The notes: generated by a model not told the origin, from the sequence alone. A stretch of DNA of 64,000 nucleotides from Alphaproteobacteria bacterium (GCA_965205265.1 CBDBGH010000003.1:4128001-4192000); one strand, 5' to 3'; numbered from the stretch's first letter, positions 40,439 to 51,757 are shown. Program-made: numbers and translations.

Positions 40439-42354
40439 CCTGACTTCGACGGTTGATTCGCATAAGTAGTTGATATTGCCTGGTTCTCATTTCGGCTAGG
40501 CACTACATCCGGCATTTCTTCGAGCCGTGCTTCGTCGACGGTCAGGCGAGTTGATACGGGGTGATCGTCAGGGGCAGCCCCATGGTTGCGTAAATCTGCT
40601 CCGCCGCCGGTGTCGGCTTCGAGGGGATGACGTAGCGGTTGCCCGATTGCCGACAGCGCAGCAGGGAGCACTGGCGGTGGACGAGGGCGGAGCGGATGAC
40701 CTCCGGGGACATCCGCCGCTTCTGGATGGCGACGCGGTACGCAAGGTGTCGAACGCAGGCGAAGGCCAGGAAGGCGATGGCGATGTGAGCGCGGATCCGG
40801 TCCGGGTTCCAGTGCCAGATGGGACGTATCTTCAGGTCGTGTTTGGTGATCCGGAAGCTCTCCTCGACCTGCCAGAGCCCCTGGTAGTGAGCCATCACTT
40901 CGGTGACGCGCGCGTCGCGCAGATTGGTGATGACGCCGGTGAGCCCGTCCCATCGTGCGGCCTCGGCGATCTTCTCCGGGTTCACCGTGAGCCGTGCGTC
41001 GCCCTCGACGGCGATGAAGCGCTTCGCCCCGTGATTGGAGAGCAGTTCCCTGGGATTGTCGCTGCGGGCCAGCCTGTCGAGCAGGCGTTCCACCTGATGG
41101 CGGCGCTCGTGCGCGTCCTTGCGTGCGCGCTGGGGGCAGAAGACGACGATCAGGCGACGGCCCTTGTACTCCCACTCGCCGACCCGGCGGTCCTGTGAGC
41201 CCTCCAGCGGGGCATAGGTCCCGGGGTCGAGAACCTGCCCCAGCAGCGCGAGCGGCAGCTTGCGCAGCCGCGCGCCGACGACATACTCGCCGCCGATGGC
41301 GTCCATGGCGTCGAGGTTGTCGGCGCTCAGCATGCCCCGGTCGGCCACGCATACCGTGCGCTCCACCTGGTGGCGGCGCTGCATGTCCTGCAGGACCGGG
41401 ACCATGCTGTGTCCCTCGTAGGTGGCGCCGGGGAAGACCTCGTAGCTGATCGGCAGCCCTTCGCGCGTCACCATCAGCGCCAGCAGAACCTGCGAGTCCT
41501 TGTGTTTGCCGTCCTTGCTGAAGCCGTGCTGGCGAAGCTCGTCCTCGGCGGCCGTCTCGAAGTAGAGCGTGGTGCAATCGAAGAAGAGGATCGCGACCGG
41601 CTCCGGCAGCAGCGACCGGCTCGCCTCGCCGACGCGCGTGCGCAGTCGCTCGATCACCGTCGCGTCGAGCTGATCCATCATCCGGTAGACCTTCTCGAGC
41701 GGAAGACTCACGCCGAAGTCCTCCTCGAGCCGGCGCACGCTGCCCCGCTTGCTGTCGGGGTTGGCTACCCGCGCCATCACCACATGGAACAGCGCGTCAT
41801 GGGAGGCCCGGTAGCGCGAGCGCGGCAGCAGCGCGTCGAGGCCCAGCAGCCGGTAGATCTCGCCATAGACCTCGTGGATGCCTGTGATCAGGCGCTGCTC
41901 CTCTTCAAGCTGCTTGAGGTCGACCGGGAGTTCCTCCTTGCCGTCCCCCCGGCGGCCGACACGGATCGCCTGCTCAGCGATCTTCTCGGGCGCAAACAAT
42001 GCCGGCTGACGCTCGTCCTCCAGCTTCGCCTTGACGTACTCGCCGAGCTGCCTCAGGCGCTCGAGCTCGTCCTCGTCCATGGCCACGCCGACATGGCGGA
42101 CGATGCGCTGTCGGACCTTGCCGCCGTCGCGCACGGCCTCGACGATCTGGACCGAGCGTCGCGGGCTGTTGGGGGAGGTCTTGATGCGCACGAACATGGG
42201 GGGAGTGTAGCGCGTGGCGGAGGCATTGACAGTCTCAAAGATTTACTAGGCACTACAACGCAGCTTGACCGCACCGCAACTGCCAACTCATTGGCTTTAC
42301 TGAAAACTCCAGACGCGAGATCGGTCAGAAGTCAGCCCAACCGTCGAAGTCAGG
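40439..42354 (-). mobile_element. IS1634-family element, 17-bp perfect TIRs, 138-bp flanking direct repeat
   Basis: cctgacttcgacggttg (40439-40455) / caaccgtcgaagtcagg (42338-42354). Confidence 0.92.
40542..42197 (-). CDS. IS1634-family DDE transposase
   Basis: FFDCTTLYFE, GFSKD, VADRGM, WQVEESFR.K..L.IRPI.H. Confidence 0.93.
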   Translation of the reverse strand: MFVRIKTSPNSPRRSVQIVEAVRDGGKVRQRIVRHVGVAMDEDELERLRQLGEYVKAKLEDERQPALFAPEKIAEQAIRVGRRGDGKEELPVDLKQLEEEQRLITGIHEVYGEIYRLLGLDALLPRSRYRASHDALFHVVMARVANPDSKRGSVRRLEEDFGVSLPLEKVYRMMDQLDATVIERLRTRVGEASRSLLPEPVAILFFDCTTLYFETAAEDELRQHGFSKDGKHKDSQVLLALMVTREGLPISYEVFPGATYEGHSMVPVLQDMQRRHQVERTVCVADRGMLSADNLDAMDAIGGEYVVGARLRKLPLALLGQVLDPGTYAPLEGSQDRRVGEWEYKGRRLIVVFCPQRARKDAHERRHQVERLLDRLARSDNPRELLSNHGAKRFIAVEGDARLTVNPEKIAEAARWDGLTGVITNLRDARVTEVMAHYQGLWQVEESFRITKHDLKIRPIWHWNPDRIRAHIAIAFLAFACVRHLAYRVAIQKRRMSPEVIRSALVHRQCSLLRCRQSGNRYVIPSKPTPAAEQIYATMGLPLTITPYQLA

Positions 42355-43980: not shown

Positions 43981-44085
43981 TCCCGGGCCCGTTCGACCGT
44001 GGCCATGCGCTGAAGCGGGCGATTGACAAGCCGGTCCGGCGGGGCGAGTGCTGCGCCGGACCGCCCAATGGAGAAGAGTTCCCCC

Positions 44086-44946
44086 ATGCCCGAACCCAGC
44101 GTTTGCCCCCGCCGGTCGTTCATCTTCACGCCGGGCCTGCGCCCCGATATGTATCCGAAAGCGCTTGCGACCGGGGCGGACATTGTCTGCGTCGAGCTTG
44201 AGGACGGGATCGCGCCCAAGGACAAGCCGGCCGCGCGCGCCAATACGATGAAGCTCTTCGAGAGCCCGCAGGCCGACGACGGGGTCGAGCGGGTCGTCCG
44301 CATCAACTCGCTGCGCGAGAGTTTCGGCATGGCGGACGTGCAGGCCGTGCTGGAGGCCGACACACCCCCGCCCGCGCTGATGCTGCCCAAGGTGCGCACG
44401 CCGGACGAGGTGGCGCTGCTCGACGACCTGCTGAGCGAACGCGGCCACGACACCCGCCTGCATGTCATCATCGAGACCAATGCCGGGCTCGAGGCCGCCT
44501 GGGACATCGCCCATTCGAGCCCGCGCATCGACGCCCTGTTCTTCGGCGGCGTGGACATGGCCGCGGAGCTTCGCTGCGAGAACGCATGGGAGCCGCTGCT
44601 CTACGCCCGCTCGCGCGTGGTCCATGCCGCCGCCGGCGCCGGACTGGACGCCATCGACGTGCCCTATCTGGACCTCGAGGACCCGGACGGCATGGAGCGC
44701 GCCGCAATTCAGGCGCGGGAGCTCGGCTTTTCCGGCAAGGGCGCGGTGCATCCCCGTCAGATCGCGGCGCTCAACGCCGTGTTCACGCCCTCGGCCGAAC
44801 GCATCGCGCGGGCGCGGCGCATCATCGCCGAGTTCGAGGCCGCCGACACGGGGCTGGTGGTGATCGACGGCAAGCTCATCGAGAAGCCGGTCCTGCGCGA
44901 GATGCACCGCATCGTCGCCATCGCCGACCGGACCGGCGCCGGATAG
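44086..44946 (+). CDS. CitE/HpcH-family CoA ester lyase
   Basis: RRSFIFTPG, ELEDG, VRIN, IIET, GKGAVHP. Confidence 0.9.
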   Translation: MPEPSVCPRRSFIFTPGLRPDMYPKALATGADIVCVELEDGIAPKDKPAARANTMKLFESPQADDGVERVVRINSLRESFGMADVQAVLEADTPPPALMLPKVRTPDEVALLDDLLSERGHDTRLHVIIETNAGLEAAWDIAHSSPRIDALFFGGVDMAAELRCENAWEPLLYARSRVVHAAAGAGLDAIDVPYLDLEDPDGMERAAIQARELGFSGKGAVHPRQIAALNAVFTPSAERIARARRIIAEFEAADTGLVVIDGKLIEKPVLREMHRIVAIADRTGAG

Positions 44947-45122
44947 GCGCCTGCGCCGTCGAAGCCGGGCCGGGCGCCGAAGACAGGCGGCTGGGAGCCT
45001 CCCGTCCCGGGATATAGCAAGTGTCATAAGTCCTGGTTCTTATAGCAAAACGCTATAGCACAGCCCTTCGGACACTGAAACTTTCGTCTGCGAAACCGGA
45101 AGGATTCGCAAAGGCGAGCGTC

Positions 45123-45776
45123 GTGGATTCGAAGAATTTCCCCAAAGAGACATCCCCTCTTCTCCGGCGACTGGCAGTCGTCCTGAGTGGTTTCCTGATG
45201 ACGCTGGTCCTCCTGATGAGCAACGGAATCCAGTTCCTGGGTGGTAAGGCGCCGCTTCACGTTGTTCAGGAAGCCCGCGCCAACAGTGGAGACGGGGACG
45301 GCGATGGAGATGGAGATGGAGACGGAGACGGAGACGGAGACGGTGATGGGGACGGCGATGGAGATGGAGATGGAGACGGAGACGGCGACGGAGATGGAGA
45401 CGGAGATGGAGACGGAGACGGAGACGGAGACGGTGATGGGGACGGCGATGGAGACGGAGACGGAGACGGTGATGGGGACGGCGATGGAGATGGAGATGGA
45501 GACGGAGACGGCGACGGTGATGGGGACGGCGATGGAGACGGAGACGGCGATGGGGACGGCGATGGAGATGGGGATGGAGACGGAGACGGCGATGGGGACG
45601 GCGATGGCGATGGAGACGGCGATGGAGACGGAGACGGCGACGGCGACGGCGACGGCGATGGGGACGGAGACGGCGATGGGGATGGCGATAGCGGGAGGGG
45701 TGGCGGTGGCGAGGAAGCGGGCGGCCGTTCTGGCGGCAGCGACCTTGCTGACAGCCTGCGCGGCGGGAGCTTCTGA
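45123..45776 (+). CDS. Exported/membrane-anchored protein with (Gly-Asp)67 tract
   Basis: Hydrophobic N-terminal segment, AxA site (ARA) just before the tract; repeat codons vary only as GGN-GAY. Confidence 0.75.
45288..45689 (+). repeat. 402-bp degenerate hexamer tandem repeat (GGNGAY)x67
   Basis: Read directly from the sequence. Confidence 0.95.
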
Positions 45777-45954
45777 GACCGGGGCAGTTCGGACCTGTCC
45801 GTCCCTGGTCGCATATTCTGCGGAGTTTCGGGAACGGGCCGCTGACGAGATCGAACGATTGCCCAGGGACTCCGCGGTCGTTGCAATGCTGGCGGACTAT
45901 GCTTCGATGAGACAACAGACACGCGCCTGTATCGGAAGCGAGGCGGACTCCTGA
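45706..45954 (+). CDS. Small lipoprotein (Rz1/o-spanin-like) overlapping the end of the GD gene
   Basis: RBS GGAGG 45694-45698, GTG start, lipobox LTAC, CP..V.YS...LP....LADY..R...RAC. Confidence 0.65.
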
Positions 45955-45980
45955 AAAACCGAGCCGGGGGAGGAAGGACA

Positions 45981-46610
45981 ATGGCCCGATACGGTTTCGC
46001 GCACCGAAGCGCCCGCTTCGCCAGGATCGCCGAGTGCGTGGATATCGCTCCGCTGCTGGAAGAGCTGGATGCGGGATCGGATATGTGGTCCGTGGACACA
46101 AGCCGCCAGCGGAAGGTCCGGTGCCAGCGCCACACCCGGAACATCTTCCTGCGAGCGCCGAAAAAACCCCTTCCGCCGGGCGCAAAGAACGCCAACGATG
46201 TCCATGAAAGCCGCCTCACGTCAGCGGCTGGCAGGTTTCCCCTTGCTTTGGCGTTCTGCGAGCGGGTCGCCGCCGAACTCGACGCGGAGCTCGGGCGGGC
46301 GACCCTGGTAACGCTGCTTCCGAAGAGCCGGGTCTACCCGCATGTCGATGCCGGAGCCTACTACCGGGTCCGGGACCGCCTGCATCTTGTGCTCAAGAGC
46401 CCGCAGGGAAGTCCGCTTACCGCCGGCGACGAGACCGTCGTCATGCGCGAGGGAGAGCTCTGGGCATTCGACAACAAGGCCCGGCATTTCGCCGACAATC
46501 CCTCCAGCAGGCCCCGCGTGCATCTGATTTTCGATGTCCTGCCGGCTCCGGGCCGCGGCTTCTACGCCTTGCCCCTTCCCGCCGGGAGCCCGCCATCGTT
46601 ACGCATTTGA
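45981..46610 (+). CDS. Aspartyl/asparaginyl beta-hydroxylase-family Fe(II)/2OG dioxygenase
   Basis: PHVD (HxD), [14 protein letters not shown]...H...[11 protein letters not shown]. Confidence 0.82.
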
Positions 46611-48161
46611 AGAGCGTCCGCCGAATTCCATCGGGCGGAGAACCTTGATCGCTGCCGCCAGGGCATGCGCCGCCGAGTCCACCCGCACCGCGTTGTCGTA
46701 AACTTCCGTTCGCAGCGCTCCCAGAACACGCTCCGGCCGGGCGACGTAGAACATGTCGCGCCAGTTCCGAAACTGGAGTTGCCCGAGCGACCTCAATCCG
46801 CGCCGGATGGCGCGCTCGTAAGCCGCCGCCCGTCGTTTTTCTCCGAGCGCGCGGGCAAGCGCCGCGGCGTCCGCCAGCCCTTCCAGATACGCCCCGGTGG
46901 AGGCGGCGTGCGGGGGACCGAACTCGGGACGGCGCGGATCGTAGAACCTGCCGCGCATGTCGGCCTCGAGTCCGTCCCACTGCTGCATCGGCAGGAGCCA
47001 GTCGTTCATCTCCAGAACGAAATCCGCAAATTCGCGGCGACCGGTCTGCGCGTACAATGACGCGCAAGCCTGCGTATGCCAGGGTACGAAGGCCGGGTTC
47101 CGTTTCCTGCGGTGCCTCTCGCGGCACCGCTCGAATGCCGCCTTGCAACGCTCGACGGTCGGCGCCAGCGGAAACCTTCGTCGAAGCGCCTCGGCCCAGA
47201 ACAGCAGCGCTTCGCCGGAATAGAAGTTCCAGTTCTCGCCGTCGCGCTCTGCCGGGAAGAAGAACGTGCGGAACCCAAGCTCGCTATGCACCAGCGAGTC
47301 GATGCCCGCCGTCAGCATGGCCAGCTCCTCCGCAAATTCTTCCCTTGCGGGGTTCTCCAGAATGGCCAGCCCCGCGAGCGCAGCAGCGCCGAGCTTCGCT
47401 CCGCTGCGTTCCACAATCGCGCCTCGGCCATCGCCGAGCGGCCGAAAATACCGGGCCAGATTGAAGCGGAGGTTCAGCCGCGCCGCTTCCCGGATTTCGG
47501 CGGAATCGCGCAGCTTCGCCAGACGGGCGAGCGCCAGAGACGCCAGGAAGCGGCGAAGGGCATTGTCTGCGGGCGATTCCTCGCCCCGGCTCGGCCAGTA
47601 TTTGTAGGGGAGCGCCCCGTCGGCATCGAGATTGCGAAGCATCCACTCGCCGATTCCGTCTGCGAGGTCCGCCGCGCGCTCGCCGTCGCCGGTCGCCGCG
47701 GCTTCGACCGGCGTCCCGCCGCGAAAGAGTTCCACGGGCGGACGCCCGCTCCCCGGAGGCAACAGATACTGCCTTGCGGCAAAGGACCGGAGGCCGCCTT
47801 CGGCCGCGAAGTCTTCGCGGCTGGCTCCTCGTTCTTCGAGAAACCTCTCGAGAGCGCGGTCGAAGCCGAGATTCGCCGCCAGCATGCGCGTCGGCGCGAG
47901 GCGGAGAAACGCGCCCCGGAATTCGATCTCCATCCCCACCAGGCCGCGGACGCGCGGATAAAAGACCCGCGCGAAACGCTTCTGCGCAACGCGCCGGAAG
48001 TTGCCGGCGACGCATACCTCAACCGCTTCGTCGGCGCGCGCGCCGACAAGCTTGCGCAGGTCCGCCAGCGCATCGCAATCGACCCAGCCGGCGCGGCGCG
48101 CCGCCCCGTTTCGACGAATGCAGAACCAGGTATCGCCGTCCGGGCTCCGCCGGGGGTTCAA
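46599..48161 (-). CDS. Hypothetical enzyme: possible AMMECR1-like N-domain plus alpha/alpha-toroid domain
   Basis: TTG start coupled to the LuxR stop with RBS GGAGG; motifs YKYWP..DNALR, KLGAAAL, FYSGEA, YLEG, RVD..H. Confidence 0.55.
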   Translation of the reverse strand: MNPRRSPDGDTWFCIRRNGAARRAGWVDCDALADLRKLVGARADEAVEVCVAGNFRRVAQKRFARVFYPRVRGLVGMEIEFRGAFLRLAPTRMLAANLGFDRALERFLEERGASREDFAAEGGLRSFAARQYLLPPGSGRPPVELFRGGTPVEAAATGDGERAADLADGIGEWMLRNLDADGALPYKYWPSRGEESPADNALRRFLASLALARLAKLRDSAEIREAARLNLRFNLARYFRPLGDGRGAIVERSGAKLGAAALAGLAILENPAREEFAEELAMLTAGIDSLVHSELGFRTFFFPAERDGENWNFYSGEALLFWAEALRRRFPLAPTVERCKAAFERCRERHRRKRNPAFVPWHTQACASLYAQTGRREFADFVLEMNDWLLPMQQWDGLEADMRGRFYDPRRPEFGPPHAASTGAYLEGLADAAALARALGEKRRAAAYERAIRRGLRSLGQLQFRNWRDMFYVARPERVLGALRTEVYDNAVRVDSAAHALAAAIKVLRPMEFGGRSSNA

Positions 48162-48651
48162 CCCGCCTCCCGCCCGCTGTCCGGCCCTTCCTCGCGAGGC
48201 GAAGAGTCGCTGGGAATGGACATGAGCAGCGGCTGAAGGATCTCGGCCACGAATTCCGCCCTCCCGCTGACGCCGGCCTTTGCATAGAGCGATGTGGCCT
48301 GCAATCGCGCGGTGCTTTCCTTGACTCCCCGGATCCTGGCAATCTCGGAGAAGCGGAACCCCTTGATGATGAACCAGGCAACGTCTCTTTCGCTGCGCGT
48401 CATCCGCCACTCGGCCATCCGCTCGTCGATGCTTTCTGCGAGCGCCGTGGAAAACAACCTGTTCCGGCGTTCTTCGCGATTCAGCCGCACACGCAAACGG
48501 CGCAGGTCCCTGAGGCCGAGGACAAGCGCTATCGATACGCCGATGAACACGACGAGTTCGGTGATGAAGTGGAACGACCCGTACTCGTCTTCGTACAACC
48601 AGTCCGCAACGAGGTCGTAGGCAAAGAACAGTATCGCGCATGCAAGCACGG
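48158..48651 (-). pseudogene. Membrane-anchored LuxR-family regulator, 3' part (interrupted by IS21)
   Basis: Two TM segments plus TRSERDVA..IKG...EIA..R.....LYAKAGVSGR HTH. Confidence 0.8.
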
Positions 48652-49033
48652 TGTCGGTGATTATCATAAAGGGCGCATATTTGCTGGCGTAGCGCGCTTT
48701 TGTGGTGCGCACGACAAACAGCGTGAGACAGGCGCGGCCGGGTTTATGACGGGGGCCGAGGACGGAAGGAGGGCGTAGCCCGACCGGAGTCCTCGGCCCC
48801 CGTCGCGTTGAGATTTTCGCCTCCCGGAGGGCGGCGACGTCCTGGCGACCGGGTTGGCCGTTCCCGGGCTGCGGCAGGGGGTAGACTGGGGCTTCTGAGA
48901 ACGATGCGGCGCCGGCCCCGTTGGCTTGGTGGCAACGACCGGCGCCGCACCCCCCGAGCCATGCAAGGCGCGGCCCGGAAGCGCAGTATCGTGCGCGTCC
49001 GGGCGTGGGTCCACCCCGTTCTCATCGGTCGCG

Positions 49034-49468
49034 ATGAGGAACGCCGCCCGCCTGTTCACCTGCGCCCTGTGCCGCCGCCAGGTGGTTCTCTGCCGGCGCT
49101 GCGACTCTGGCCATATCTACTGTTCGCCGCGTTGCAGCGGGCGGGCGCGGCGTCGGTCGGTGCGCCTTGCGGGGCAGCGCTACCAGAACAGCCGCCGGGG
49201 CCGTCACAAGCATGCCGAGCGCCAGCGGCGCTACCGCGAACGGCGCCGTGTGCGGCAGCCGGCAGTTCGGGCCATCGCGCAGAAAGTGACGCATCACCCT
49301 TTGACCGTCGCGCGCCGGCGTCCTGATGTGGCGCGCATACCGGCGGGGCGGTCCGGAACCCGGCCCTTCGGGCCCGACCGTCCCGCCCGGGTGTTCCGCT
49401 GCGAGCGCTGCGGTCGGTTCTGCGGCCTGGCGGTCTATCCGGGCCTGCGCCAGGCGCGAAGGGAGTGA
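49034..49468 (+). CDS. Cys-rich (Zn-finger-like) basic accessory protein upstream of istA
   Basis: CALC, CRRC, YCSPRC, CERCGRFC. Confidence 0.7.
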   Translation: MRNAARLFTCALCRRQVVLCRRCDSGHIYCSPRCSGRARRRSVRLAGQRYQNSRRGRHKHAERQRRYRERRRVRQPAVRAIAQKVTHHPLTVARRRPDVARIPAGRSGTRPFGPDRPARVFRCERCGRFCGLAVYPGLRQARRE

Positions 49469-49469
49469 G

Positions 49470-50975
49470 ATGGCGATCGACAAGCAGACCCGTGCCGAGA
49501 TCCAGCGGCTGTATTTTGCCGAGAAGTGGAGGATCGGCACGATCGCGCGCCAGCTCGGCGTCCACCACGGCACGGTCGAGCGCGCGGTAGCGGCCGCCGG
49601 GGCGCCCGCGCGTGAGAGGCGGCGCAGGGCTTCGATGATCGATCCGTTCCGGCCCTTCATCCGCCAGACCCTGGCGGTCTGGCCCAGGCTGCCAGCCAGC
49701 CGGCTCTACCAGATGGCGGTCGAGCGCGGCTACCGGGGCAGCCAGAGCCACTTCCGGCGCATGATCGCGCCGGAGCGCCCGCGGCCTGTGGCCGAGGCCT
49801 ATCTGCGCCTCAAGACCCTGCCCGGCGAGCTGGCCCAGGTGGACTGGGCCCACTTCGGCAAGGTGAGGATCGGGCGCGCGGAGCGCCCGCTGATGGGCTT
49901 CGTGATGGTGCTGAGCTACTCGCGCCGCATCTTCCTGCACTTCTACCTCAATGCCGCGATGGACAACTTCCTGCGCGGCCATGTCGAGGCCTTCGAGGCC
50001 TGGCAGGGCGTGCCCCGCGAGCTATGGTACGACAACCTGAAGAGCGTCGTGCTGGAGCGCCAGGGCGACGCCATCCGGTTCAACCCCCGGCTCCTCGACT
50101 TCGCCGCCCGCTACCGCTTCCTGCCCAAGCCGGTCGCGGTCGCGCGCGGCAACGAGAAGGGGCGCGTGGAGCGCGCCATACGCTATGTGCGCGACAACTT
50201 CTTCGCCGCCCGCGCCTGGCGCGACCTCGACGACCTGAACGCCCGGGCCCGCGCCTGGTGCGACGGCGTCGCCGCCGACCGTCGCTGGCCGGACGACCGC
50301 TCCCTCACCGTGCGCGAGGCCTTCGAGCGCGAGCGCGGCTCCCTGATGGCGCTGCCCGACGACCGGCCCCCCGTCGACGAGAGGGTCGAGGTCAGGATCG
50401 GCAAGACCCCCTACGCCAGGTTCGACCTCAATGACTATAGCGTCCCGCATACCCATACGCGGCGCACCCTCACCGTGGTCGCGACACTGGAGGAGGTACG
50501 CATCCTCGACGGCGCCGACACCGTCGCCCGTCATCCGCGCAGCTTCGACAAGGCGGCCCGCATCGAGACCCCCGAGCACATCGAGGAGCTGGTCAGGCTC
50601 AAACGTCACGCCCACCGCCTGCGCGGGCAGAGCCGCCTTCTCCAGGCCGCCCCCGACAGCGAGCGCCTGCTTGCCGAGACCGCCAGGCGCGGCGGCAATA
50701 TCGGCACAACCGTCGCCTCCCTGCTGCGCCTGCTCGACGACTACGGAGCCGTCGAACTCGAAGCCGCCATCGATGAAGCCCTTGAGCGCGGCGTCCCCCA
50801 TCCCAATGCGGTGCGCTTCAGCCTGAACCGGCGGCGCGAACAGCGCAACGAGCCACCACCCATCCCCATCGACCTGCCCGGCGATCCAAGACTGCGCGAT
50901 ATCGCGGTCCGCGATCACGACCTCGGCGGATACGACGGGCTCGCAAGCCACCACGAGGAGGACAGCGAAGAATGA
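49470..50975 (+). CDS. istA: IS21 transposase IstA
   Basis: N-terminal HTH, AQVDW, YDNLKS, KGRVER. Confidence 0.93.
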   Translation: MAIDKQTRAEIQRLYFAEKWRIGTIARQLGVHHGTVERAVAAAGAPARERRRRASMIDPFRPFIRQTLAVWPRLPASRLYQMAVERGYRGSQSHFRRMIAPERPRPVAEAYLRLKTLPGELAQVDWAHFGKVRIGRAERPLMGFVMVLSYSRRIFLHFYLNAAMDNFLRGHVEAFEAWQGVPRELWYDNLKSVVLERQGDAIRFNPRLLDFAARYRFLPKPVAVARGNEKGRVERAIRYVRDNFFAARAWRDLDDLNARARAWCDGVAADRRWPDDRSLTVREAFERERGSLMALPDDRPPVDERVEVRIGKTPYARFDLNDYSVPHTHTRRTLTVVATLEEVRILDGADTVARHPRSFDKAARIETPEHIEELVRLKRHAHRLRGQSRLLQAAPDSERLLAETARRGGNIGTTVASLLRLLDDYGAVELEAAIDEALERGVPHPNAVRFSLNRRREQRNEPPPIPIDLPGDPRLRDIAVRDHDLGGYDGLASHHEEDSEE

Positions 50976-51757
50976 CCCTCAAGGACCGCGCCACGGCGCT
51001 CGGACTGCACGGCCTCCTCGCCCACTGGAGCGAGGTTGCGGAGCGCGACTGGCTCCCGCCCCTGATCGCATGGGAAGAGGAAGAGAGGCGAAGCCGAAGC
51101 CTCAGGCGACGCCTCACCGCCGCCCGCCTCGGACAGTTCAAGCCGCTCGCCGACTTCGACTGGGACTGGCCAAGGCGATGCGACCGCATGGCCGTCGAGG
51201 ACCTCATGACCCTCAACTTCCTCCGCGAGGGCGCCAATGTCGTCCTCATCGGCCCCAACGGCGTCGGCAAGTCCACAATCGCCGCCAATATCGCACACCG
51301 CGCCGTCCTCGAAGGCCACACCGTGCGCTTCGCAACCGCCGCCAGCCTGCTCGGCGAGCTCGCCGCCATCGACTCCGACACAATGCTCCAGCGCAGGCTG
51401 CGCTTCTACGCCCGCCAGCACCTCCTGGTCATCGACGAAGTCGGATATCTCTCCTACTCCAACCGTCATGCCGACCTGCTGTTCAATATCGTCTCAAGCC
51501 GCAGCCAGCAGCGCTCCACCATCATCACCACAAACCGCCCCTTCGCCGAGTGGAGCGAGGCCTTCCCCAACGCCGCCTGCCTCGTGGCCCTTGTCGACCG
51601 GCTCGTCCACAATGCCGAGATCCTCGCCATCGACGGCGACTCATACCGCCGCAAGGAGGCCGAGGAACGCCAGAAGCAGCGCAGCGCCGATCGCCGCCGG
51701 CGGCGATCGGCAAAAGGAGCGGGCAAGAGCACGGCGCAAGACACGGGGGATGCCTGA
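50972..51757 (+). CDS. istB: IS21 AAA+ helper ATPase IstB
   Basis: [27 protein letters not shown]. Confidence 0.95.

Follow-up and report, generated by a model that had tools for sequence, protein, structure and literature searches.

The locus described here lies in a window of 64,000 nucleotides from an Alphaproteobacteria bacterium (GCA_965205265.1, CBDBGH010000003.1:4128001-4192000), and its features are collected in Table 1. A gene for a (Gly-Asp)n repeat protein (GD protein) is followed on the same strand by an overlapping lipoprotein gene and by the gene of an AspH-family Fe(II)/2-oxoglutarate (2OG) oxygenase, and the genes of a toroid protein and of a LuxR-like protein converge on these genes from the other side, an arrangement which a first-pass annotation of the sequence had already described.

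Table 1. Features of the locus; positions are counted from the first nucleotide of the window.
Feature	Position	Strand	Description	Basis
TATAGCA[AC] motif	45013..45061	+	three direct copies at 45013, 45041 and 45054; candidate operator/promoter element	AT-rich spacer upstream of GD gene
GD-protein ORF	45123..45776	+	217 aa	GTG start
GD-protein leader	45123..45287	+	basic N-terminus, hydrophobic helix, conserved ...GGKAP..QEARA segment; probable N-in signal anchor	
GD repeat	45288..45689	+	(GGN-GAY)67 = (Gly-Asp)67, predicted periplasmic	Tandem Repeats Finder, codon counts, translation
GD-protein tail	45690..45776	+	28 aa and stop codon; shows homology to the C-terminal end of phage proteins in i-spanin position	tail alignment
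Lipoprotein	45706..45954	+	82 aa, o-spanin-like, lipobox LLTA/C, Ala at +2	phrog_26778 4.4e-17
Oxygenase	45981..46610	+	AspH-family Fe(II)/2OG oxygenase, 209 aa, pI 9.9, no signal peptide	PF05118
Toroid protein	46599..48161	-	520 aa, AMMECR1-like N-domain and (alpha/alpha)6 toroid, pI 9.75, cytoplasmic	AF2/Foldseek
LuxR-like ORF as annotated	48158..48712	-		ORF call
Native part of regulator	48158..48650	-	membrane LuxR/GerE-like, hydrophobic helices and C-terminal HTH	NF047608, GerE, relatives
IS21-family element	48651..51757 (right end provisional)	+	orf180, istA, istB; in regulator 5' end	profiles, copy count

The Repeat Protein and Its Codons

The translation splits exactly into a 55-aa leader, 67 GD units and a 28-aa tail, in agreement with the first-pass annotation, and the computed net charge of the protein is about -65. 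Its GTG start aligns with the ATG of relatives. Four species of the genus keep the leader at 56-81% identity, and the same leader type occurs in G403 (locus L076), L039, L041-L044 and L063. A hydrophobic helix had been noted in it and is indeed present, as the sole one (residues 13-31, the best 19-residue hydrophobic stretch), but the ARA motif that had been read as a cleavage-like site does not fit this role, as it lies about 19 residues past the helix. Since a signal peptidase site is expected nearer to the hydrophobic helix than that, a signal anchor suits the leader better than a signal that is cleaved, and the anchor is the more likely assignment.

Tandem Repeats Finder called periods of 12 and 42 in the repeat, which is built of seven hexamer types and has a longest exact internal repeat of 68 nt. 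Over the 67 units, hexamer positions 1, 2, 4 and 5 are invariant, position 3 is A/C/G/T in 34/19/10/4 units, position 6 is only C or T (38/29), and all differences between units are synonymous. Across 1513 units from 24 dereplicated loci, the Asp codons are GAC (984) and GAT (527), with GAR present only twice, and the third base of Gly is A, G, C or T in 396, 303, 672 and 142 units, respectively. Judged by these codon counts, the GD frame is translated and under selection for Asp, and the earlier argument for such selection, rather than slippage, holds over this wider set. Repeat length is 24-84 units in relatives and 24-152 units overall, a spread that speaks against a periplasmic ruler of fixed length. 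In four public runs, all short-read contigs break at 45286-45714, a stretch that spans the repeat.

Tail and Overlapping Lipoprotein

The most likely start of the lipoprotein is GTG 45706, preceded by a GGGAGG site; with this start, its gene shares the final 71 nt of the GD ORF, read out of frame. In viral loci with a homologous transmembrane (TM) protein/lipoprotein pair, the overlapped TM ORF ends in ...RDELADRLRDGRF (50 of 64 loci) and an M15 endolysin (peptidase) precedes the pair (54 of 64). The homology of the tail to the phage TM protein covers its last ~13 residues. In a spanin, the o-spanin is bound by a structured domain that the i-spanin has in the periplasm; here the predicted periplasmic part consists of (GD)67 and the 28-aa tail, and the tail alone is homologous to the phage protein. 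As described in the available part of PMC6139136, spanins combine an i-spanin carrying an N-terminal TM domain with a lipobox o-spanin, in embedded, overlapped or separated order, and the same architecture is found here, with the N-terminal TM helix, the LLTAC lipobox and the out-of-frame overlap. On this homology, both the tail and the lipoprotein that overlaps it come from a phage spanin pair; the first-pass annotation had correctly placed a lipoprotein downstream on the same strand, and had missed the spanin origin of both parts. The tail may contact the lipoprotein. A profile search found an HpcH aldolase and the oxygenase as the neighbours of the pair, with no lysis cassette at the locus, and no endolysin or other phage gene adjoins the pair in five species. 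A lytic role of the pair is unlikely.

Oxygenase and Toroid Protein

The AspH-family assignment made in the first pass was upheld by the profile search (PF05118, Asp_Arg_Hydrox, 64.3 bits against a curated cut-off of 22.6, E 1.5e-17). Residues H121-x-D123, H169 and R179 align with the metal/2OG ligands of proline hydroxylases and AspH (4p7w, 1e5r, 5apa), and among 24 oxygenase sequences the two histidines and the aspartate are invariant and the arginine nearly so. The AF2 model (pLDDT 87.5) has the DSBH fold, and its best PDB match is L-proline cis-4-hydroxylase (4p7w), ahead of AspH; LpxO is matched with E 0.0042. The fold and the nearest solved relatives fit a protein or a free-amino-acid substrate alike. 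The TPR domain and the two-His, carboxylate-free iron site that are features of AspH orthologs are absent from this HxD protein. In the entries checked, members of the family go by nothing more specific than [quoted passage not shown]. The products of three neighbouring genes have pI values of 5.1-6.7, against 9.9 and 9.75 for the oxygenase and the toroid protein.

The TTG start of the toroid gene overlaps the luxR stop codon (TTGA), and its 3' end overlaps the convergent oxygenase gene by 12 nt. The protein has no sequence match in Pfam, NCBIfam or PDB, and its AF2 model (pLDDT 82.4) is matched by Foldseek to GH76, SHC-like and AGE-epimerase barrels. The N-domain is matched to the AMMECR1 structures 1zq7 (6e-4) and 1vaj (1.3e-3) over ~170-180 columns, without a Pfam match, and PF01871 is found in only 12-13% of the members of toroid-related Atlas clusters; we know of no activity assigned to AMMECR1. 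Distant toroid relatives (~40% identity) are found in glycan loci, with an NfrB-like GT2 or ManC next to them, a setting which hints at carbohydrate rather than peptide chemistry.

Regulator and Upstream Motif

The first 21 codons of the annotated LuxR-like ORF belong to the IS21-family element, relatives show the native N-terminus of the regulator, and their contigs diverge beyond 48651. The gene had been described as a membrane LuxR sensor, and it is LuxR-like with hydrophobic helices, but it is not intact, as the element truncates it at the 5' end. Its matches to NF047608 (LIC13292 family; 2.2e-13, 50.7 bits) and GerE (E 0.016, 15.3 bits) are below the respective cut-offs of 200 and 23.5. 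Within the element, IstB_IS21 is matched with 6.5e-57, the IstA ORF matches Mu-transpos_C_2 and rve, and orf180 is found at 16 places in the genome (this one counted) with 100% identity over 179-180 of 180 aa, in addition to a 56-aa piece. In this genome the insertion has cost the regulator its native 5' end together with the region upstream, and the module may be misregulated.

The motif TATAGCA[AC] occurs 28 times in the 5.7-Mb genome, both strands counted, and at least two copies within 45 nt are found only here. The form TATA[AG]CA[AC] lies upstream of the GD gene in L010-L013, L041, L042, L044 and L047. The copies may be the target to which the LuxR-like protein binds.

Recurrence of the Module

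Among 17 genomes of the genus, five have both a close oxygenase homolog and a GD repeat of at least 8 units, and 12 have neither. The order of GD gene, lipoprotein, oxygenase, toroid and LuxR is the same in four other species; the neighbourhood seen in the window is common to L010 and L013, and the listed neighbours of L011 and L012 differ. In G155 and G403, two genomes that belong to other families, the oxygenase lies beside a toroid homolog (69% and 66% identity, respectively), and a GD repeat is found close upstream of the oxygenase. Additionally, 37 metagenome loci were found by the oxygenase alone, a set that comes from few projects and holds many near-duplicates, with related genomes not being independent. 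A same-strand GD repeat of up to 152 units precedes the oxygenase in 31 of these loci; two begin inside a poly-Asp tail, one begins inside the GD-protein tail, one has the repeat on the opposite strand, and two, which are the same sequence, have no GD repeat. A convergent toroid is present in 35 of the 37. The first-pass annotation had held that its idea would fail if hydroxylase homologs never co-occurred with acidic repeat proteins, and they clearly co-occur in the genomes and in the metagenome loci; the neighbourhood search that it had proposed for the two enzymes likewise found adjacent exported GD-repeat ORFs, including those of G155 and G403.

The trio of GD protein, oxygenase and toroid is found again in many bacteria, and wherever the sequence sufficed to look, oxygenase and toroid homologs lie beside long GD repeats. 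No GD repeat was found near distant oxygenase homologs on a Sulfitobacter plasmid (45% identity) and in G007 (~29%), and the toroid is absent from three of the six class-sample genomes with GD runs of at least 10 units, those three having 13-16 units. The proteins that carry the repeat are of at least eight types, among them a TM anchor, an NHBA/Slam-type barrel lipoprotein (PDB 6cuj, 6e-4; NF041636, 5e-6, below cut-off), a B_lectin-like domain (5.8e-7, below cut-off) and RTX repeats (4e-26). Since carriers differ between lineages, the association is with the repeat itself. The enzymes are also fused in other organisms: as read from their sequences, P0003, P0005, P0010 and P0015 contain two tandem oxygenase-like domains (two matched stretches each) and then a toroid part, and P0016, P0020 and P0051 contain a toroid and then an oxygenase in one polypeptide (P0020 aligns with the toroid at 3e-107 and with the oxygenase at 7e-51, P0003 with the toroid at 1e-71). 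In three contigs (L067, L068, L074), a GD lipoprotein and the oxygenase share one open frame. Besides the two enzymes, the LuxR-like gene is the only one that turns up in more than a few lineages. Our search found no literature on GD repeats paired with an AspH-family enzyme.

Proposed Function and Alternatives

The GD protein, the oxygenase and the toroid probably make a chemically modified, strongly acidic envelope polymer. The locus is a conserved module, which comprises the gene of an exported (Gly-Asp)n protein, the oxygenase directly downstream and the convergent toroid, joined in many versions by a small membrane LuxR-like regulator, predicted here to be translationally coupled to the toroid gene, and by the upstream TATAGCA direct repeats. 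The basic oxygenase would bind the polyanionic repeat while it is still unfolded, ahead of or in the course of Sec export, and would beta-hydroxylate the Asp residues that precede Gly, and the toroid would act with it on the same substrate. We lean, modestly, towards this reading of hydroxylation before export followed by a second step due to the toroid. Against this reading, neither enzyme carries an export signal although the repeat should be periplasmic by prediction, so that any modification would need to occur ahead of Sec translocation. The pI values of the two enzymes, set against the proposed substrate's net charge, were counted in favour, as was the published precedent of SmaO, an Asp hydroxylase that acts on GDGDG.

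The outcome would be a heavily modified, cation-binding envelope spacer, and the GD polymer may bind metals such as Ca. The carrier in this genome has a probable inner-membrane anchor, a tail taken from a phage i-spanin and an overlap with an o-spanin-derived outer-membrane lipoprotein, and because of these parts the polymer may be tied to both membranes. The free RiPP-like polymer suggested at first is not borne out, as the GD repeat occurs as a domain within anchored envelope proteins and neither a leader protease nor an exporter belongs to the module; the carriers, of 121-650 aa, have anchors and folded domains. More broadly, and with a confidence that stays below even, we propose an undescribed Gram-negative system of envelope protein modification, in which the oxygenase-toroid pair, separate or fused, would turn (Gly-Asp)n into poly(Gly-beta-hydroxy-Asp) or a further derivative, giving a high-capacity Fe(III)/Ca-binding polymer on inner-membrane-anchored, surface-lipoprotein and secreted proteins, with spanin parts co-opted in this genus to tie the polymer between the membranes.

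It is rather unlikely, if far from fanciful, that both enzymes modify the repeat to a product beyond simple beta-hydroxy-Asp (hydroxylation followed by O-glycosylation, aminomalonate or another oxidation), with the toroid making the decisive step. The module contains neither an SmaX-like HD-domain enzyme nor a glycosyltransferase, and the toroid is without a match to characterised families and resembles in its N-domain a protein of no activity known to us. Such a product would nevertheless be consistent with the pairing of the two enzymes in the metagenome loci and their fusion elsewhere, with the resemblance of the toroid fold to sugar epimerases and glycoside hydrolases, and with the GT2 or ManC beside its distant relatives. 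It would also have a precedent in SmaX, which processes the product of SmaO according to the available part of PMC12186529.

We consider it unlikely that the GD repeat stays unmodified and serves as an acidic spacer or a cation buffer, with enzymes that act on a lipid, a glycan or a small molecule and are merely co-regulated or allied with it. PF05118 includes the lipid A hydroxylase LpxO and free-proline hydroxylases, both of them seen among the oxygenase matches, acidic GD, SD or GE low-complexity proteins occur without the module, and the enzymes are cytoplasmic and the repeat exported. However, the association tracks the repeat through all carrier types, the match within the genus is perfect (both or neither in every genome), and the repeat and the oxygenase share a frame on three contigs; moreover, a mere spacer should tolerate Glu, and the selection for Asp and not Glu mirrors a known Asp hydroxylase.

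Very improbable is a decaying prophage remnant, in which a functionless hexanucleotide repeat, expanded by slippage, has invaded an i-spanin gene. The tail and lipoprotein are homologous to genes of phage lysis cassettes, the region is IS-rich and repeat length differs among relatives, but no phage gene adjoins the pair, the leader is conserved also in lineages without the lipoprotein, the spanin parts are absent from most GD carriers, and the selection pattern, with near-exclusively synonymous variation over 1513 units, contradicts decay. Finally, a true gene on the reverse strand (45266..46219), reading the repeat as (Ser-Pro)n, is barely credible: variation in its TCN CCR frame is likewise synonymous, but CCY, which also encodes Pro, occurs at 0-2 of 1513 positions, a near-absence explained only by GAY for Asp, this ORF lies antisense across the genes for lipoprotein and oxygenase, and the GD frame is elsewhere continuous with signal peptides and folded domains.

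Significance

If the oxygenase modifies the repeat as we propose, this would be ribosomal protein hydroxylation at polymer scale, with tens to more than 100 Asp per chain in bacterial envelope proteins, and it would provide the first functional context for the widespread, uncharacterised AMMECR1-toroid family as well as one case in which phage spanin parts serve a purpose other than lysis. In many siderophores it is beta-hydroxy-Asp that binds Fe(III), and the same residue marks Ca-binding EGF domains. A polymer of this residue that is encoded by a gene could have a role in metal uptake, mineral interaction or cationic-peptide resistance, and might make a useful biomaterial.

Comparison with Known Systems

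Human AspH shares the Pfam family and the DSBH fold with the oxygenase, and it hydroxylates Asp in proteins leaving the cytoplasm, as is proposed for the GD carriers. According to the available parts of PMC13168262 and PMC6817910, AspH holds iron by two His and EGF domains by its TPR domain, whereas the oxygenase has the full HxD...H triad, no TPR domain and only 209 aa; at ~20% identity, it is no closer to AspH than to free-proline hydroxylases.

In overlapped Rz/Rz1-type two-component spanins, as far as the available part of PMC6139136 describes them, an inner-membrane protein with an N-terminal TM domain is likewise followed by an out-of-frame overlapping lipoprotein gene. Unlike them, the pair here stands outside any lysis cassette, (GD)n takes the place of the i-spanin's periplasmic helical part, and the leader is that of the GD family and not of the phage protein.

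SmaO is an Fe(II)/2OG Asp beta-hydroxylase of a RiPP cluster, of which the available part of PMC12186529 reports that it adds a hydroxyl group to each Asp of GDGDG, does not accept Asn, Glu or Ala, requires a following Gly, and passes its product to a second enzyme, SmaX. The likeness drawn here is one of description: in both cases, the gene of an Fe/2OG oxygenase has beside it one that encodes a ribosomal Gly-Asp alternation, the specificity of SmaO matches a repeat whose Asp is always followed by Gly (1511 Asp against 2 Glu codons), and a second enzyme accompanies the hydroxylase. As described in that source, the SmaA substrate offers two Asp in a short secreted peptide, whereas 24-152 units stand here in large anchored envelope proteins; the GG leader, PCAT exporter and ATP-grasp enzyme of that cluster have no counterpart here, and the partner is an AMMECR1-toroid protein instead of the HD-domain enzyme SmaX.

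SdgA and SdgB, according to the available parts of PMC3794999 and PMC8561734, are GT-B enzymes that put GlcNAc on Ser of the staphylococcal Ser-Asp repeat adhesins. They differ from the module in their GlcNAc-on-Ser chemistry, in enzyme class and in acting on Gram-positive cell-wall-anchored proteins, but as enzymes dedicated to the long dipeptide-repeat stalks of surface proteins, for which the repeat is the substrate whatever its carrier, they are, as those sources describe them, the nearest analogue in logic to the system proposed here.

The Gly-Asp repeat and its reading frame

The GD protein of the window splits exactly, as the first-pass annotation had it, into a 55-aa leader, 67 perfect Gly-Asp (GD) units and a 28-aa tail. 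The same annotation had argued for selection on Asp and against slippage, and this is confirmed by 1513 units from 24 dereplicated loci, in which 1511 Asp codons are GAY (GAC 984, GAT 527) and 2 positions are GAA/GAG, with the Gly third position free (A 396, G 303, C 672, T 142). The hexamer of the window's repeat is fixed at positions 1, 2, 4 and 5; position 3 can be any of the four bases and position 6 is only C or T. Tandem Repeats Finder gives periods of 12 and 42. The tract uses seven hexamer types and has no exact internal repeat longer than 68 nt, so it cannot be called a monotonous product of slippage. In the reverse-strand Ser-Pro frame (TCN CCR), CCY would leave Pro unchanged as well but is absent from all units, so Asp coding is left as the sole explanation of the GAY-only restriction. 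The METE... frame (the lipoprotein ORF stretched back to 45241) is dismissed, since the repeat variation would be non-synonymous there and the signal peptide begins only after the repeat. At other loci the GD frame runs continuously from a lipoprotein or signal-anchor sequence into recognisable domains. Selection acts on the GD frame of the repeat. Matches of the GD ORF to Pfam TrAA12 and NCBIfam MSCRAMM all fall on the repeat and are low-complexity artefacts.

The leader has a basic N-terminus, a single hydrophobic helix at residues 13-31 and then a conserved ...GGKAP..QEARA segment. The hydrophobic helix proposed earlier is present; the Ala-Arg-Ala taken for a cleavage-like site lies about 19 residues beyond the helix, for which reason we read the leader as a probable N-in signal anchor, which would place the repeat in the periplasm.

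Features of the GD module in the window; the names LuxR and AMMECR1 stand for sub-threshold or fold-level matches
Feature	Position	Strand	Remarks
GD protein ORF	45123..45776	+	GTG start, 217 aa
GD repeat	45288-45689	+	67 units
TATAGCA[AC], three copies	45013, 45041, 45054		spacer 5' of GD gene
Lipoprotein gene	start most likely GTG 45706	+	GGGAGG site ahead; lipobox LLTA/C
Oxygenase gene	45981..46610	+	3' of lipoprotein gene
Toroid gene	46599..48161	-	tail-to-tail 12-nt overlap with oxygenase gene
LuxR-like gene	48158..48650	-	truncated membrane regulator
IS21-family element (orf180, istA, istB)	48651-51757		at least 15 other genome places
DDE_Tnp_1 transposase (2.4e-14)	40542-42197	-	upstream of HTH/PhnD-like/HpcH genes

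The TATAGCA[AC] motif occurs just 28 times in the genome and is clustered nowhere else; related TATAGCA-type copies precede GD genes in eight further loci, one of them with a different carrier. A sigma-70 scan returned 0 promoter-like sites, terminator-like sites were at chance level (5 against 3.2 expected), and Rfam gave no match across 44000-49500. The TTG start of the toroid gene shares TTGA with the LuxR-like stop codon and has a GGAGG site ahead, and therefore these two genes look translationally coupled.

The LuxR-like regulator is truncated by an insertion sequence in this genome. Its first 21 codons are IS-derived and identical to the ends of other IS21-family copies; they replace about 16-18 native codons together with the upstream region. 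The protein of relatives has a different, native N-terminus, and contigs of related strains diverge from the window past 48651. The orf180 product is 100% identical over 179-180 of 180 aa at 16 genome places, the window copy counted. With the DDE_Tnp_1 transposase on the other side, the module is flanked by two mobile elements in the window's genome.

The oxygenase and the toroid

The oxygenase is a PF05118 member in which H121, D123 and H169 never vary and R179 hardly does, and these residues align with the iron and 2-oxoglutarate ligands of solved relatives. Its model shows a confident DSBH fold (pLDDT 87.5), the closest solved structures being L-proline cis-4-hydroxylase, AspH and a nucleoside-antibiotic hydroxylase, so the fold gives no substrate class. 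By sequence, the toroid has no match in Pfam, NCBIfam, PHROGs or PDB sequences. At the level of fold only, its model (pLDDT 82.4) is an (alpha/alpha)6 barrel like those of GH76 mannanases, small squalene-hopene-cyclase-like proteins, cellobiose/GlcNAc 2-epimerases and GH88 enzymes, preceded by a domain resembling AMMECR1 structures.

Searching 1.84 billion representative proteins by profile gave 167 matches at 1e-30 or better, and many of the best ones are long fusions. Four of them (P0003, P0005, P0010 and P0015; 918-965 aa) can be read as two tandem oxygenase-like domains followed by an AMMECR1-like and toroid part, an order taken from the sequence, with two matched stretches each in the search. 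Three others (P0016, P0020 and P0051; 768-969 aa) read as toroid, then oxygenase. In alignment, P0020 is 45% identical to the window toroid (3e-107) and 47% to the window oxygenase (7e-51), and P0003 is 40% identical to the toroid (1e-71). Cyanobacterial MAGs are the source of one fusion cluster, and a gammaproteobacterial MAG is that of a stand-alone relative; in a 400-genome phylum-wide sample, the window's genome was the sole match to P0020. Judged from these fusions, the oxygenase and the toroid belong together. In P0029 and P0032 the oxygenase domain is, by eye, apparently joined to phosphoribosyltransferase-like and beta-propeller-like parts.

The presumed substrate can also be joined to the enzyme. 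On three contigs representing two sequence variants (L067:288-1826, L068:3933-5588 and L074:3933-5348), a GD lipoprotein that contains (GD)24-50 plus a poly-Asp run continues into the oxygenase domain with no stop codon between, and therefore presumed substrate and enzyme share a single open frame.

Distribution and carriers of the repeat

Within the searched set, the oxygenase matched in 6/61 genomes, one of the six being a 29%-identity paralog. The close homolog is present in the window's genome and in G003, G006, G010 and G016, and all five arrange the genes alike, from the GD gene through lipoprotein, oxygenase and toroid to LuxR; their GD units number 67, 73, 24, 71 and 84. The window's neighbours are common to two loci; those given for L011 and L012 differ. 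Repeats of at least 8 GD units were found in 5/17 genomes of the genus, exactly the five with the close homolog, which is a clean presence-absence match within the genus, to be counted as one or few events because related genomes are not independent.

In a sample of the class, 9/401 genomes matched the toroid, two of them in other families (G155, 69% identity; G403, 66%), and in both the oxygenase adjoins the toroid and has a GD repeat immediately upstream of it. At least 10 GD units occurred in 6 genomes of the same sample: the window's own (two loci), G155, G403 and three others, where 13-16 units lie within mixed SD/GE acidic proteins without the toroid. A metagenome scan with the oxygenase profile gave 37 loci at 60-84% identity, from few projects and with many near-duplicates (about 20 lineages by our own count). 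When the co-occurrence proposed in the first-pass annotation was checked, oxygenase homologs were found beside GD-repeat proteins in the five genus genomes, in G155 and G403, and in 31/37 of these loci, where the repeat (up to 152 units) is upstream on the same strand. Contigs L054 and L070 begin within a poly-Asp tail and L040 within a GD-protein tail, and in L075 the repeat is on the opposite strand. L049 and L050 (the same sequence) are the sole oxygenase loci of the scan with no GD repeat, in up to 5 kb upstream; the toroid reference sequence of L050 has a stop codon, and the module may be in decay at this locus. A convergent downstream toroid is present in 35/37 loci, LuxR in 15/37 and the spanin-like lipoprotein in just 4/37. 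More distantly, a Sulfitobacter plasmid homolog of the oxygenase (45% identity) has neither GD repeat nor toroid nearby, a homolog in G007 (29%) has no GD repeat nearby, and phage homologs are about 31% identical.

Carriers of the GD repeat
Carrier	Found in	Domain evidence
TM anchor	this genus, G403, L039, L041-L044, L063/L065	conserved leader
Lipoprotein with NHBA/Slam-type barrel	L033, L045-L048, L051	PDB 6cuj 6e-4; NF041636 5e-6, below cut-off
Lipoprotein with B_lectin-like domain	L052, L053, L055, L056	5.8e-7, below cut-off
Large secreted protein ending GD24-D18	L057	none
Lipoprotein, almost only repeat	L058-L060	none
Lipoprotein with several GD blocks	L069, L071, L072	none
Protein with RTX repeats	L073	4e-26

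On the oxygenase tree, the carriers fall into 11 groups and require 11 changes. Since unit number ranges from 24 to 152, a role of the repeat as a fixed periplasmic ruler is unlikely. Unit counts taken from short-read contigs are uncertain, and the contigs of short-read runs X1, X4, X5 and X6 all end within 45286-45714, so they speak neither for nor against 67 units. Near-identical contigs differ in unit number (L045-L047, 95 vs 102; L052/L053, 25 vs 75; L058-L060, 127-132; L067/L068, 24 vs 50; L071/L072, 46 vs 89), through either rapid length change or repeat collapse in short-read assembly.

At L063/L065:3941-4606, the segment ...HL.GKTV.QIQEA(R/S)A before the repeat is duplicated along with a second GD block, which suggests that a recognition segment and the repeat may act as one unit. 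A second GD repeat of the window's genome lies outside the window (G000:C3:3631832-3631969; locus L106:2365-4473, minus strand), where 23 units serve as a linker within a secreted protein of 702 aa whose C-terminal end is a CFI-box-CTERM domain (NF041770, 2.1e-11); the same enzymes may act on this protein too. Several sequencing runs that cover part of the window (X6, X7 and others) are labelled sponge metagenome, the X6 pieces being mostly 95-99% alike to the window, so a close relative may live in a sponge habitat. Among the runs listed as containing the window's sequence, none is an RNA run.

Origin of the tail and the lipoprotein

The lipoprotein matches phrog_26778 (4.4e-17). In Rhizobium phage RHph_I20 and Roseobacter phage CRP-235 it matches short genes situated after those for a lysozyme and a small TM protein. 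A search of genome contigs with narrow lipoprotein patterns gave 8 loci. In the MAG loci L017 and L018, the order is M15 peptidase, then a TM protein ending ...RDELADRLRDGRF, then the overlapped lipoprotein; among 64 viral contigs carrying the lipoprotein, 54 have the M15 peptidase directly upstream and 50 an overlapped TM ORF with a ...RDELADRLRDGRF-type tail. GD proteins of the genus end in ...RDGLVDGLRDGSF, with the window protein's own 12-residue ending taken from the tail alignment, and in the window the lipoprotein gene and the GD tail overlap by 71 nt in different frames. This matches the overlapped architecture defined for two-component spanins in PMC6139136. By sequence and arrangement, the GD tail and the lipoprotein derive from a phage spanin pair, the spanin function of this particular family being presumed solely on the grounds of its position and architecture.

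The GD leader bears no evident likeness by eye to the phage TM proteins. As leader and repeat occur elsewhere without the lipoprotein (G403, L043/L044, L063/L065), the window gene is best read as a chimera in which a GD-family anchor and the repeat are joined to the 3' end of a spanin gene acquired by capture. A complex prediction for the tail (alignment entry A5, residues 11-48) with the mature lipoprotein (sequence A6, residues 19-82) scored 0.29 against a mark of 0.32, which is no verdict either way. A spanin-derived tail with an outer-membrane lipoprotein suggests a possible tie between two membranes in this genus.

Proposed mechanism and comparison with known systems

The oxygenase and the toroid are predicted to be cytoplasmic, whereas the repeat is predicted to be exported. 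Both enzymes lack a hydrophobic N-terminus and are basic (pI 9.9 and 9.75, respectively), and the net charge of the GD protein is close to -65. The closest guide to the reaction is SmaO, a published Fe/2OG hydroxylase that, according to PMC12186529, turns both Asp of a GDGDG core into L-erythro-beta-hydroxy-Asp, refuses Asn, Glu and Ala and needs a following Gly; a second enzyme then yields aminomalonate. Likened by this published activity, the GD repeat offers the same Asp-Gly context at every unit and the same residue constraint, and for that reason we rank first, as somewhat better than an even prospect, a mechanism in which the oxygenase would beta-hydroxylate the Asp residues in the cytoplasm, ahead of Sec export.

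Ranked next, and rather improbable by comparison, is hydroxylation plus further toroid-dependent chemistry on the repeat. Distant toroid relatives (about 40% identity) are membrane-anchored; one (L037:7428-12892) adjoins an NfrB-like GT2 with a MshEN domain and an NfrA_C protein, and the other (L035:3662-9641) adjoins ManC and a PEP-CTERM protein. These neighbours hint at glycan chemistry, and the toroid family may act on glycans. Under the preferred reading, cytoplasmic Asp hydroxylation before export, the modified repeat may bind cations, as the known roles of beta-hydroxy-Asp suggest.

Asp hydroxylation in proteins and peptides and repeat-specific modification enzymes are both already established. 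Source records give the proteins of the module generic names only, and among the open-access papers examined we found none on Gly-Asp (GD/DG) repeats together with a hydroxylase. What would be new here is a polymer-scale substrate in envelope proteins, a toroid as obligate partner and spanin parts put to another use. In its logic the system comes closest to SdgA/SdgB, which glycosylate the Ser-Asp repeats of staphylococcal proteins (PMC3794999 and PMC8561734).
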